A stretch of 64,000 bases of DNA. Source: Octopus vulgaris (taxonomy: Eukaryota). The stretch lies in contig OX597815.1 in NCBI GenBank assembly GCA_951406725.2, forward strand, positions 85,250,001 to 85,314,000, in the 5' to 3' direction. The translations under genes and the position numbers were made by a program. Positions within the stretch are counted from its first letter, which is position 1, and every line of letters starts with the position of its first letter. Shown here one piece after another: positions 13,721 through 62,803 of the stretch. The notes below the pieces were generated by a model. That model ran no database searches and had not been told where the DNA came from. It saw only the letters and a list, made by a program, of their open reading frames with translations.

Positions 13721-13762
<42 letters not shown>

Positions 13763-13931
13763 GAGAGAGGGAGTGAAAATCTGGGGGAAATATAGCATTA
13801 GGAAGGGCATCCAGCTATAGAAACTGTCAAAACAAACATTGGAGTTCAAAACTCCAGTGTTTGTTTTGACATAGTTTCTATGGCTGGATGCCCTTCCTAA
13901 TGCTAACTATGTCTCTCCCCCAGCTTTTCAC

Positions 13932-13940
<9 letters not shown>
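13763..13940. repeat. Inverted duplication of an RTE-family 3' fragment (hairpin) between microsatellites
   Basis: gcattaggaagggcatccagc...caaacattggag-ttcaaaa-ctccagtgtttg...gctggatgcccttcctaatgc. Confidence 0.8.
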
Positions 13941-13987
<47 letters not shown>

Positions 13988-38151: not shown

Positions 38152-38865
38152 GTAAGCAATTTTTCTTTGTGTGTTTTTGTACTTTTTTCTAGTTACTGCT
38201 TTTAGCAATTCAAATCTATTAATCTCCTTTAAGAAGGATATGAACATTCCATTCCTTGCAAACCTATAAATCTGAAACTTAGGGCTAATCATCAGCTGAA
38301 CAAATATTCCATACAAGCAATTACAGAAACTAATAGAAGACAAAAGTTTGAATTAGCAAGTATTTACTACTTGCTATATCTATGCTAGCAGAAGATGTTA
38401 TACAATTAATTATTGTTGCTATTTATAAATATCAAACTTATATCAGTGATAACAGTATTTTTACAATGAGATCCTTAGTTGAGTATTAGTAAATTCATTA
38501 AATAAGAATACGAGATTAAGACAGTATTTAACCCTTTTGTTACTATATTTCTGTTAAAAAGCATTGAATTTCCTTCAATTAACTCTTTGAAAATAGCTTT
38601 GTCACTATTAGCTAGTGTTTGGAATGTGAATTAATGTGAAATTTTGATGGAAGATTTTAATTCAGATCACTTTTGAGCAAGAAGTGTGTATCATAGAATC
38701 TGGGCCTGTCTCAGACAGATTATTATCACAGATTTAAAGATGGTTATAGATAACAGATATGCTACTGAAATAATCTATTACACCATAATGATGAGTCATT
38801 GCAATGAAATGGTTAAAGCTCTACTATGAATTTAAAAGTCACAGGTTCGGACCATAAGGCTTCAC

Positions 38866-39046
38866 TACTATAGCAACATTATTTTCTGTTTGTAGCCAAA
38901 CTCAAATTTTGTTGGTCTACTAAATTAAGTACGTATCTTACTTTCTAGTGAACAGAATTACAAACTAGAAAGTAAGATACATACTTAAGTAGACCAACAA
39001 AATTTGAGTTTGGCTACAAACAGAAGAAAATAATGTTGCTATAGTA
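38866..39046. repeat. About 180-bp hairpin palindrome
   Basis: tactatagcaacattatttt...ctttctagt / actagaaag...aaaataatgttgctatagta with a loop of about 14 nt. Confidence 0.9.
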
Positions 39047-39407
39047 TACAGTATTGTAATACTGTATAGCAAAAATGCATTATTGGGATTACTTTCATGA
39101 TATCACAACATATCTTTTCACACAGACCAGATGTATTTATCATAATATTAATCATTTATCAGTACAATGTCTTAATACCAGTATATAGTAACTTCATAAA
39201 TTCAGAACCTTATTAATCCATAAGTAGATTAATTACTTTGTAAAAGCCTTGGCTAGCTATGTATTTCGTGTTGGGAGAAATTGATGTAAATATTTATTTT
39301 CTATAGAATGTAGTATATTTCTGAAAGGTTGTATATGGACTTCTATGTTTGTATAGGACTTTTTTTTTTTCTAAAACATTTCATGGAATATTTCTTTCTC
39401 ATTTCAG

Positions 39408-59560: not shown

Positions 59561-60147
59561 TAATGACTTGAGATAATTTTACTGTTTTTCTATTACTACT
59601 ACTACTACTACAAATGTTTAATCTCCTGCAGCTTGATTCTTGAGCAGGCTTGCACAGCTCTGAAAATGAAATGAGGTATGCTTTAAGAAAAATTGCTCTA
59701 CACTACAGATTTCAAATAAAGTAGACAAATATTTAAAATTTATTATAAATCTTGAATAGTGGGCAGAGAATTTAATTTCAGGTTTTGAAGTTTTAATATC
59801 AAATTTTTAAATATATATCAAACTTCCATGCTGCTCAAGACAAATTTTGTAAATAAAACACAAGCGATGTTTAGTTTTATATATATTTTGGTGAGTGGTA
59901 TGCATGTCATTCTGAGGTGCCTCATGGATCAAATGTTATACAGACTTGTTGAGGTTATTTTACTTTTGGTGACAAATCTTGCTATTCAGTGTCATTTATC
60001 CTATTGCATTCGCAGAACATCATTCACTAAGAAGCCAGTATGTTCCCCACTTTTTTTATATACTAATTAAAACTTGTTAAATATATGATTTTTGACATTG
60101 CTTTATGTAAATGATTGTTGGTATCTCTAAAATTTGTTTTTCTGTAG

Positions 60148-60297
60148 GGCAAACCTGAATTTCTTGGCCGATCTAAAGCTAGCCCAATGGTAAAGCTTGA
60201 TCCTGCTGATGCTCGAAACCCAGTTTTACAATGGTACCCTGTTTATAAGAATGAGGTTGCAAAAGGAGAAATTCTAGCTGCCTTTGAATTGTTCTTG
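60148..60297 (+). CDS. MYOF: Ferlin exon, C2D end (GKPEFLGRSKASPMVKL...LQWYPV...GEILAAFELFL)
   Basis: tctgtag|...|gtaagt, 150 nt, phase 0-0. Confidence 0.96.
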
Positions 60298-60450
60298 GTA
60301 AGTATATATATATATATTTGATTAGAGGTTGTGTTAATCTCATGAATGTATGGTTTCATTAAAGTAAATACTAGTTCAATACCTAGTATTTTGGGGTAAT
60401 TAATTTCTTTAAAATAATAGGTATATATAAAAACATATAGTTTATAGTCA

Positions 60451-60862
60451 TACAAAAGAAGAAAAAGAAAACAGATTTGAAGTTAATAATTGTTTATTAT
60501 TTACAACAAATTAATCATCATTCCTTACAGCTGTTTCAATTAACGCTCAGTAAATATTAAAGTTATATGATTTGAGCATATCTTCAGAAGAATCAATCTG
60601 CAAACCCCTCACCTGAACATATAACAATAGAAATCATAAACAGTATCATTCAGTCTGCTATAGTGAATAAATAACACATATAAAACATCCAAGGGTATAT
60701 TTTTTCCCTCTGAAGATATTATGCTCAGGTCATATAAATTTAATATTTACTCAATATTTACTGAACATTAATTGAAACAACTGTAAGTGATGATAATTAA
60801 TTTGCTGTTAATAATAAACAATTATTAACTTACCAATCTCAATTATCTTTTTCTTCTGTTTT
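60451..60862. mobile_element. Older inverted-repeat element with hammerhead motifs in both arms
   Basis: About 60451-60592 is reverse-complementary, with divergence, to about 60707-60862. Confidence 0.7.
60521..60592 (-). ncRNA. Penelope-type minimal hammerhead motif, partly degenerate; second copy at about 60705-60790 +
   Basis: On the minus strand: TTCTT-CTGAAGA-(ATGCTCA/TGAGCGT)-GAAAC-AGCT-GTA-AGGAA, with palindromic stem III ACAGCTGT. Confidence 0.6.
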
Positions 60863-61004
60863 ATATATATATATATATATATCAACAATCAAGGAACGGC
60901 TATAATAGGCCATTCACCCACTAGAAATAACAGCCAAAGCTTCAACCGCAAATAAAAATTAATTCCGTAAACCAGGAGAAAATTTAAAAAACATTTACCC
61001 TGTA

Positions 61005-61111
61005 ATTTCTTATACGATATACCGTTTCATCTGCTGATTAATGGTAAACTAACCTGATTAAATTAAATCAAGCCAATCTTCCACAGGCCCTCAGATTCTT
61101 CAGTAAGAAAT
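61005..61111 (-). ncRNA. Type I hammerhead ribozyme motif, inverted copy of 61565-61671
   Basis: Reverse complement of the + strand motif within the inverted arm. Confidence 0.8.
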
Positions 61112-61564
61112 AGCCCAAGTCGGAACAGATATTTTCACGAGGCATTTCCGACCTTGCCAAGTTTATATCTGACCTAAAATTTTCAAAATGTTTTTTAAAT
61201 TTTCTCCTGGTTTACGGAATTAATTTTTATTTGCGGTTGAAGCTTTGGCTGTTATTTCTAGTGGGTGAATGGCCTATTATGGCCGTTCCTTGATTGTTGA
61301 TGTTGAACTTAAAAATGGTCTATGACTATTTTAATTTTTTCCCACTAGGCCGCTGGTGGCAAAAGAATTCTACAAAATTTTTTTTTGCCACCCTATATTG
61401 ATTAATTATGAATTTTCTGGTTAATTCCGTAATGGAATCGACGGCTTATATTTATTTGCTGCCGATAAATTTGGCGCGAGTGCGACGATTTGAAAATTTT
61501 AGGTCAGATATAAACTTGGCAAGGTCGGAAATGCCTCGTGAAAATATCTGTTCCGACTTGGGCT

Positions 61565-61671
61565 ATTTCTTACTGAAGAATCTGAGGGCCTGTGGAAGAT
61601 TGGCTTGATTTAATTTAATCAGGTTAGTTTACCATTAATCAGCAGATGAAACGGTATATCGTATAAGAAAT
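61565..61671 (+). ncRNA. Type I hammerhead ribozyme motif, intact
   Basis: Stem I ATTTCTTA/TAAGAAAT (8 bp), core CTGAAGA (61573-79), stem II ATCTG/CAGAT with a long insert, GAAA (61648-51), stem III ACGG-TATA-TCGT, GUA cleavage triplet ending at 61663. Confidence 0.85.
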
Positions 61672-61800
61672 TACAGGGTAAATGTTTTTTAAATTTTCTC
61701 CTGGTTTACGGAATTAATTTTTATTTGCGGTTGAAGCTTTGGCTGTTATTTCTAGTGGGTGAATGGCCTATTATGGCCGTTCCTTGATTGTTGATATTGA

Positions 61801-61858
<58 letters not shown>

Positions 61859-62701
61859 ACACACATGTTTTGGTTGACTTGTAAAACTAAAGTGTTCAAA
61901 ATGGTTCTTTTTATATTGTCAACATTAGTGTAGTACATTTGTATTGTACATAACATGAATTAAATTTGCTTTTATTCAGGTGTTATTTTTTTAGTCATTT
62001 TGAATTAGATTCATTTTTTCAGATATTTGAAATTAACTAATTTATATGCAAAGTTCAATGGTTTTATGTTCATGTGTTTCCTGAAGGAATTAGTAATGGG
62101 AAATGAAATAGTATAACTCTTACTATTGCTACTTTTAATGATTTCTTTTCCAAGACTCATTTTTTAGGAATAAGAATTAATTTTCTCAATCTCTTACATA
62201 TATGTCAGTATTACATATTGGTTATTATTCACCAAAATCTTTCCACCACATTATTAACTCTTAAACACAGCTATAATTATAATTTTTCAGTTAGAAGTAA
62301 AGTTGTAGGTCTTCAATTAATTTTTTTGTTTTCTATAGTAAAGCATTCTCTCAAACAGTTTAAATAAAATTGTTCTGGCTAATAAATTAACTTCAACTTT
62401 TGATTTGAATACCAGAATTCTAGTATTTCAGCAGTTTTATTAGCCTATATCTCTGTAATGATTCACTTAAAAAGGTATGAATCCACTGAGCTTTTAAAAA
62501 AAGAAATAAGTTGTTTTACTCCCAGGCATTTGAATTGCAAGCAAAGCAGTTCCAGATGAATGATTGTAAGGAGTCGTGATGTTAGTTATACAAGTGTACA
62601 AAATATTAGTATCTTGAAGTTACTATGGATACATTAATGGAATTGGATTGAACCAGCGAAATTGTAATTGCTTCAAAACTAACTTTCTTTTCATATTTCA
62701 G

Positions 62702-62803
62702 ATAACACCTGGTAAAGATCTTCCATTCCTACCACCAAAACGTGGAGAATTATACCAAGTTCCCAATGGTATTAGACCAGTTCTACAAAGAACTGGAATT
62801 GAG
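62702..62803 (+). CDS. MYOF: Ferlin exon, post-C2D linker (ITPGKDLPFLPPKRGELYQVPNGIRPVLQRTGIE)
   Basis: atttcag|...|gtaaat, 102 nt, phase 0-0; cf. myoferlin LPILPP...YMVPQGIRPVVQ. Confidence 0.95.

Follow-up and report, generated by a model that had tools for sequence, protein, structure and literature searches.

By its testable features, the element found in a ferlin intron of the window (the whole 64,000-nt stretch of Octopus vulgaris DNA analysed here) is a non-LTR retrozyme, a kind of element that is already known and for which the genome offers unusually direct evidence on mechanism here. We find that it is probably best explained as a head-to-head insertion of a non-coding 494-nt hammerhead repeat that has been copied into (TA)n by a Penelope-like reverse transcriptase (RT)-endonuclease. 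Whether such insertions also represent the fossil record of a retrozyme cycle, combining a dimer-gated hammerhead, priming at two sites on a single RNA and circular templates, is to our judgment an evenly balanced question. Newly reported here are the mapping of insertion ends as a test for cutting in vivo, the coupling between the two arms of an insertion and the evidence for two classes of template.

The insertion is built from inverted arms at 60879-61187 and 61489-61797, and these are 309 nt long when the flanking AT is included and differ by eye at one mismatch, which bears out the near-identical arms of the preliminary description. The (TA)n target is confirmed on both flanks (60862..60882 on the left and 61806..61849 on the right). 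If the unit is numbered so that window position 61302 is 1 and 61795 is 494, repeat comparison and family alignment identify the left arm (60881..61187, minus strand) as unit 188-494 with the so-called short 3' end facing outward, while the right arm (61186..61795, plus strand) consists of unit 379-494 followed by one full unit, 1-494 (61302..61795, plus strand), of the kind that forms tandem arrays at many loci. An internal copy of the approximately 108-nt tail, which in this family lies between the two fixed 3' ends, occupies 61302..61409 (plus strand). The window copy is a short arm joined to a tail arm whose tail is reduced to its last 13 nt (61796..61808, plus strand), the other 95 nt being missing, and the element thus reaches 61808 and not 61800 as proposed earlier. 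Tail deletion was rejected as a family trait since the junction at 61796-61808 has one match in the genome, the window locus itself. The proposed 494-bp unit was found, and within the window a direct repeat of 121 nt recurs at an offset of 494 nt (61186-61306 = 61680-61800), but what had been described as a terminal redundancy of about 116 bp is a 5'-truncated second unit. The redundant length differs between copies, and here it marks the place where one cDNA stopped. The GC content of window positions 60001-62000 is 0.30, and the longest stop-to-stop frame in the element is 68 amino acids, indicating that it is non-coding.

The type I hammerhead motif, with an extended stem II, lies at 61565..61671 on the plus strand. 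Its stem I (61565-61572/61664-61671) has 8 bp, the core comprises CTGAAGA (61573-61579) and GAAA (61648-61651), stem II (61580-61584/61643-61647) closes a long hairpin to give a 68-nt stem II domain, and stem III is a 12-nt, dimer-type palindrome (61651..61662, plus strand) that is self-complementary with two G-U pairs. Cutting is predicted after 61663, between unit 362 and 363, and the inner end of the right arm lies, in unit numbering, 16 nt 3' of a cut position, as a later-pass stop near the cut site. A mirror copy was located in the left arm (61005..61111, minus strand), so that a hammerhead is indeed present on both strands, but this is a by-product of the inverted insertion and common to most copies of the family. 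The exons upstream (60148..60297, plus strand) and downstream (62702..62803, plus strand) match the consecutive myoferlin parts 1273-1322 (E 2.5e-5) and 1327-1358 (E 4.2e-5), which confirms the location in a ferlin intron and places the plus-strand hammerhead in the sense of the ferlin pre-mRNA.

The element itself sits in the terminal (TA)n of an older head-to-head hammerhead element that adjoins it on the left (60318-60861). This neighbour begins at a distance of 20 nt from the 5' splice site of the ferlin, has a tail on its left arm and none on its right, and belongs to a family with 1441 candidates at 78-90% identity. Its relatives carry CCCT CTGAAGA ... GAAA CAGCTG TA AGGG with a palindromic stem III, while in the copy at hand (core 60710-60716, GAAA 60774-60777) stems I and III are changed and the motif does not fold. 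Another small family of inverted, non-coding elements, the third of this kind, was seen in (TA)n at L092:5532-5954 and also beside L039 and L338; its hammerhead motif is compact, with a GGGG/CCCC stem II and a palindromic-looking stem III. Elsewhere in the window, long hairpins at 38857-39054 and 13755-13948 gave weak miRNA-family matches far below gathering scores and are probably small inverted-repeat elements.

The genome holds 983 candidates for the unit, of which 40 were scored and proved mostly 97-100% identical. Searching the genome for exact end patterns gave at least 420 short ends (unit 494 followed by (AT)n) and at least 808 tail ends (unit ~108 of the next unit followed by (TA)n), with none for the reversed-pattern controls. 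These hundreds of copies, with arrays at many loci and at least 808 insertions of the 494-nt unit, agree with the earlier view of a multicopy, young, non-coding hammerhead retroelement of the retrozyme/Penelope-like kind. We examined 40 loci picked by similarity and 120 taken in list order from the two end-pattern searches. The family has two fixed 3' ends, the tail end at unit ~108 and the short end at unit ~490-494, about 108 nt apart, and in the 40 similarity-picked loci 73 of 75 ends were followed by TATATA. The insertion target is (TA)n, whose repetitive nature masks any target-site duplication. A tail arm and a short arm stood head-to-head with their 3' ends outward in 48/74 tail-anchored and 48/66 short-anchored loci, and a single arm was present in 20/74 and 14/66, respectively. 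Arm lengths ranged from 25 nt to 9 units, and the inner junctions varied, with microhomology or short AT-rich fill-ins. Besides a young subfamily B (92%), there are older groups C and D, with single copies at 71-81% to the window unit, and at L068:1908-4826 insertions of subfamilies A and B adjoin each other in one (TA)n, 36 bp apart. By eye, each fixed 3' end is preceded by a hairpin and by a CCT..ATTG(T/A)T motif that is similar at the two ends (unit ends, L262, L292, L314, window 61385-61409 and 61760-61795); the motifs of the two ends co-vary within subfamilies, both being CCTAAATTG in D, and this duplicated end motif is a candidate RT start signal.

The core order of a type I hammerhead, CUGANGA, GAAA and UH, is seen in the 308 A/B copies that were parsed, a number that includes only copies matching the motif pattern. 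GAAA was intact in 307 of these, the cut triplet was exclusively GTA or GTC (H being A or C), and core position 7 was A, T, G and C in 182, 79, 22 and 21 copies. Subfamilies B, C and D all retain the motif. Across 16 chosen variants, 96.3% of cells were paired, and both sides had changed in 13 of 33 pairs, a number reached in 0 of 500 shuffles and above that of all slid controls, although the variants are related and fall into four subfamily groups, so that the changes are not independent events. By helix, both-side changes affected 5/6 pairs in stem I, 3/4 in stem II and 1/4 in stem III, and the base of stem II was mismatched in 6 of the 16 variants. The covariation is that of a ribozyme in one sense only. 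Together with a low folding z-score (-3.6 for 61555-61685), this covariation across subfamilies shows that the motif is not due to chance, and the core conservation on which the preliminary description had staked its claim was thus found. The hammerhead is under strong selection. Rfam scans of the whole window and of the element alone gave no hammerhead match, which is a limit of the model given that the motif covaries, and the miss is probably caused by the 68-nt stem II domain.

The inner ends of the arms pile up at the predicted cut site. We mapped 208 arms from pattern-anchored loci, omitting arms below 84% identity or with other 3' ends; the interval of unit 355-392 was picked after viewing the short-anchored loci, and 60 of the 74 tail-anchored loci were fetched later. 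On the first pass along the unit, 52 of ~146 arms ended in this interval, a 6.4-fold excess over background (p=3.5e-22), compared to 7 of ~99 on later passes (1.3-fold, p=0.32), and the two differed with p=1.6e-6. Both kinds of arm showed the first-pass excess when taken alone (5.4-fold for 73 tail arms and 7.3-fold for 62 short arms), even though tail arms reach the cut site after 240 nt and short arms after 132 nt. When 19-nt bins were used, the peak was at 363-381 (28/157) and 382-400 (22/179) against a background of ~3%, and the bin just upstream of the cut, 344-362, was also raised (10/129). A pile-up just 3' of the cut site suggests that the ribozyme cuts in living cells.

The two arms of an insertion were also coupled. 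Among 85 loci with a tail and a short arm, both arms reached the site in 63, and in these both arms stopped there in 19, only one arm in 1 and 2, and neither in 41 (Fisher p=6.6e-13). Since the arms stop together, the stop belongs to the template, in the way expected of an RNA 5' end. A single master copy behind the short palindromes was rejected since the junctions differ in all 16 both-stop loci from which they were extracted (16 of 19). Folding back of the tail arm was likewise rejected as a general source of the second arm, the short arm being nested in 35/85 loci and the longer one in 26/85. Equal inner coordinates occurred in 13/66 loci with 3.3 expected, and fold-back or a shared RNA end may lie behind these.

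Within a locus, the arms are much alike, differing by a median of 0.4% compared to 2.7% between loci (96 arm pairs), and for 81 of the 96 pairs no more than 5% of foreign arms were closer. With homopolymers and indel edges masked, 63 loci contained 100 variant sites, of which 96 were singletons, 3 were shared within an arm, 1 was shared across arms (L042) and none was fixed by arm. Indels were found at 3 of 337 crossings of the cut site, compared to 1170 of 13479 background windows (8.7%), and with no scars at the crossings, repeated template jumping at the cut site is unsupported. Units alternate with period 2 at L236 and L174, which would be expected of a two-unit circle. It is probable that rolling on a circle, itself inferred, is the simplest account of the uniform arrays, the clean crossings and the period of 2, and smoothing of arrays by the assembly could also have occurred.

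The alternative that fares best, although we consider it unlikely, is a Penelope-type insertion without circles, in which the long arrays derive from uncut linear multimers or from later conversion or unequal exchange. In its favor, autonomous Penelope-like elements (PLEs) make partial tandems without known circles, and the main substrate in vitro was uncut RNA, according to the accessible text of PMC11167929. It would also accommodate the small later-pass excess at the cut site (7/103 at 363-381, versus ~3% per bin) and the shared variant at L042, which is expected if the template is a linear multimer or if gene conversion has taken place; before masking, 23 of 240 variants were shared across arms, many of them beside homopolymers or indels. 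However, the arrays are uniform within yet locus-specific, and having one locus-specific haplotype in all units requires a bottleneck of one unit followed by regrowth. Furthermore, 50 of 211 arms run through two cut sites or more even though tandem hammerheads are predicted to cut, and the period-2 arrays at two loci also speak against this explanation.

It is less probable still that the pile-up comes not from a ribozyme cut but from transcription starting, or the RT pausing, near unit 363-390. A TATA-like stretch does overlap the cut site in the subfamily of the window, the inner ends are scattered 0-30 nt downstream of the cut, with the tail arms clustering at 384-386 in an AT palindrome, and mild excesses of stops are seen at other hairpin bases (unit 78-96 and 249-267). 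Yet in 14 of the 19 loci where both arms stop, the short arm extends to 361-372, upstream of where a TATA-driven RNA would start. An internal start or pause should affect later passes too, independent pauses would not couple two arms, and the pile-up falls on a strongly selected motif. Cutting by the ribozyme remains our preferred reading of the pile-up.

The preliminary description considered stem III to be stable and to favor cleavage as a monomer, and this was not upheld. The predicted energy with the flanking A and U is -0.2 kcal/mol for the hairpin and -13.6 kcal/mol for the 12-bp self-duplex, and in the other subfamilies the hairpin ranges from +0.4 to -1.0 and the duplex from -15.9 to -18.7 kcal/mol. 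The ten-mers typical of the subfamilies (CGGTATATCG, CGGTGCATCG, CGATGCATCG and CTATGCATAG) are all self-complementary, so that the palindrome is found in every subfamily. A central change from AT to GC, representing one event, is sensible only as an intermolecular pair, and one C lineage has a central mismatch. Palindromic stems III are thought to permit cutting in multimers while sparing monomer circles, as stated in the accessible parts of PMC4209133 and PMC7229834. Stem III therefore appears to be of a dimer-type design from these energies, and dimer gating would follow, although the energy model does not favor the active fold in a circle (stem I ~0.3, stem III ~0.15).

For the same reason, we find it very improbable that a monomer-active hammerhead cuts the ferlin pre-mRNA and releases a circle from the window locus. 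A stem III hairpin of 3-4 bp can be drawn, and a two-pair helix III gave 22% monomer cleavage in an axolotl retrozyme, as far as the accessible text of PMC7229834 goes, but besides the energies given above, the arms of the whole insertion are predicted to pair over the hammerhead, leaving stem I a pairing probability of ~0. With 1.2 units in the sense arm, there is one sense hammerhead and one cut site per strand, and no unit could be excised. Cleavage of the ferlin pre-mRNA is thus unlikely on these predictions. The window copy is probably inert as a ribozyme there and probably functionally unimportant beyond forming a 307-bp RNA duplex. At window positions 60700-62000, A>G plus T>C made up 40/58, 25/44 and 15/22 of the changes listed in three sequencing runs guessed to be RNA and 12/41 in a run of unknown kind; this excess could be due to A-to-I editing of the paired arms, although family variants and alleles would give the same picture.

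Two further explanations can be put aside as barely plausible. A DNA transposon of the MITE or foldback type, bounded by terminal inverted repeats and inserting at TA, would share the long inverted arms and TA flanks, but here the two outer ends are offset from each other by a constant ~108 nt, neither the length of the arms nor the position of the centre is fixed, 20/74 tail-anchored loci have a single arm and the ribozyme covaries in one sense. That the inversion is an assembly artefact is hardly compatible with 80 head-to-head junctions of identical polarity and varied sequence in 100 loci, with arms that differ at one base and with asymmetric, family-specific ends, although for the window junction itself, short contigs only were available and no spanning read was seen.

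Candidates for the partner enzyme come from at least two RT + GIY-YIG families that are intact in the genome; they have open frames of 781 and 775 amino acids and end in (TA)n with or without tails of ~36-38 nt, versus ~108 nt here. Scoring covered 150 of 6136 GIY-YIG candidates. Sensitive blastn revealed no sequence shared between the unit and 40 GIY-YIG loci or between units A, C and D and three PLE families, nor was any seen by eye in a PLE beside L044, and an ORF scan found no RT + GIY-YIG frame inside arrays in 100 loci or in 60 C/D loci (outside L201-L260). The family of the window is, at most, Penelope-like in the non-autonomous sense. The linkage to GIY-YIG/RT frames that had been suggested as a check was thus absent from the loci searched, with a single chimera as the exception. 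At L314:520-1360 (C1, 133.10 Mb), ~800 nt of a PLE 3' region resembling the 775-aa family joins a subfamily D array at unit 363 without (TA)n. The PLE part, which has a hammerhead-like motif of its own, ends a few bases short of the cut position in that motif. This chimera is unique in the genome, and the corresponding pattern for the 781-aa family gave 0 matches in the genome. It involves subfamily D and not the subfamily of the window; it hints at shared machinery and does not name the partner of the latter. Separately, L091-L102 represent a young, intact Penelope-like family with two ORFs, in which a 479-aa frame, with no Pfam family above the cut-off, overlaps the 781-aa RT-GIY-YIG frame, and which has an atypical TGATAAG-type hammerhead-like motif.

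The following comparisons draw on the accessible portions of the cited publications. Like metazoan non-LTR retrozymes (PMC7229834, Cervera and de la Pena 2020; Li, Clavereau, Pollet 2026 preprint 10.64898/2026.07.22.740005), the family is non-coding, AT-rich and tandem, has a type I hammerhead per unit and coexists with PLEs. Its unit of 494 nt is longer than the ranges of 170-400 nt and 150-450 nt taken from PMC7229834 and falls within the 51-972 nt of the 2026 preprint. It differs from these retrozymes in the 68-nt stem II domain, the 12-nt palindromic stem III, the dispersed head-to-head insertions and the two fixed ends. Copying of retrozyme circles by a PLE enzyme is a proposal in the discussion of PMC7229834. 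The 2026 preprint regards non-LTR retrozymes as derived from PLEs and non-autonomous, on the grounds that the two co-occur and that there is pLTR similarity; of the nine retrozyme dimers assayed there in vitro, only one cleaved, which weighs against our reading. In those portions, neither publication analyses where insertions end, whether they are inverted or whether they are cut short at the cleavage site. In the open-access literature, with subscription journals and supplements outside its scope, our search found no paper describing retrozyme copies that are truncated at the hammerhead site or that arise through twin priming.

The insertion pattern resembles that of endonuclease-bearing PLEs (PMC8557442, PMC3846280, PMC11167929) in the head-to-head inverted copy, the one-arm tail, the microsatellite target, the hammerhead upstream of two fixed 3' ends and the microhomology junctions. 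In contrast to PLEs, our family has no ORF, a tail of ~108 nt and not 30-40 nt, arrays of up to 9 near-identical units and no sequence link to an autonomous family in the PLE loci searched. In PMC11167929, the tail lies between two internal RT start sites, and in the accessible text none of the RNA reads end at the hammerhead site of Poseidon. Head-to-head centres are attributed in PMC3846280 to self-priming on an antisense template, but in our family two independent primings fit better, the short arm being the longer one in 26/85 loci. Non-autonomous Chlamys PLEs such as MRC1 (PMC8557442) are likewise multicopy and inserted head-to-tail, but unlike the window family, they share 3' sequence with autonomous families and belong to a clade described as lacking canonical hammerheads. 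The dimer hammerheads of newt/axolotl satellites and of PLE pLTRs (PMC4209133, PMC7229834) have a similarly weak, palindromic helix III that requires another copy, the window palindrome being longer (12 nt) and its predicted dimer helix much stronger.

In the cycle that we infer, comprising cleavage, dimer gating, circles, twin priming and a partner enzyme, tandem arrays would be transcribed, and adjacent hammerheads would pair through their palindromic stem III and cut. A lone unit ligated to a circle would have no partner and would stay uncut. The enzyme would nick both target strands in (TA)n, and both strands would then be primed on one RNA, at unit ~108 (tail end) and at unit ~490-494 (short end), the two sites being the ends observed behind hairpins. 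On ribozyme-cut linear RNA, both cDNAs would run off at the cut and yield palindromes of ~310-390 bp, while on circles they would continue round the template for as many as 9 units before ending at various positions. Finally, the two cDNA ends would be joined head-to-head by microhomology or short fill-ins, as the observed junctions suggest.

As far as the accessible text of PMC7229834, PMC8557442, PMC11167929 and the 2026 preprint goes, retrozyme integration, circles as templates, cutting by PLE-type hammerheads in vivo and the origin of inverted PLE ends are open questions. The octopus family is young and present at hundreds of loci, and it yields well-defined predictions on the cut position, the two priming positions and the dependence on a dimer, with two intact candidate enzymes in its own genome. 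The end-mapping test can be applied to any retrozyme or PLE family. If the proposed cycle is true, the insertions would be genome-level evidence that retrotransposition in an animal uses circular RNA as its template, and two-site twin priming would explain why Penelope-like elements have an inverted pLTR and a tail.
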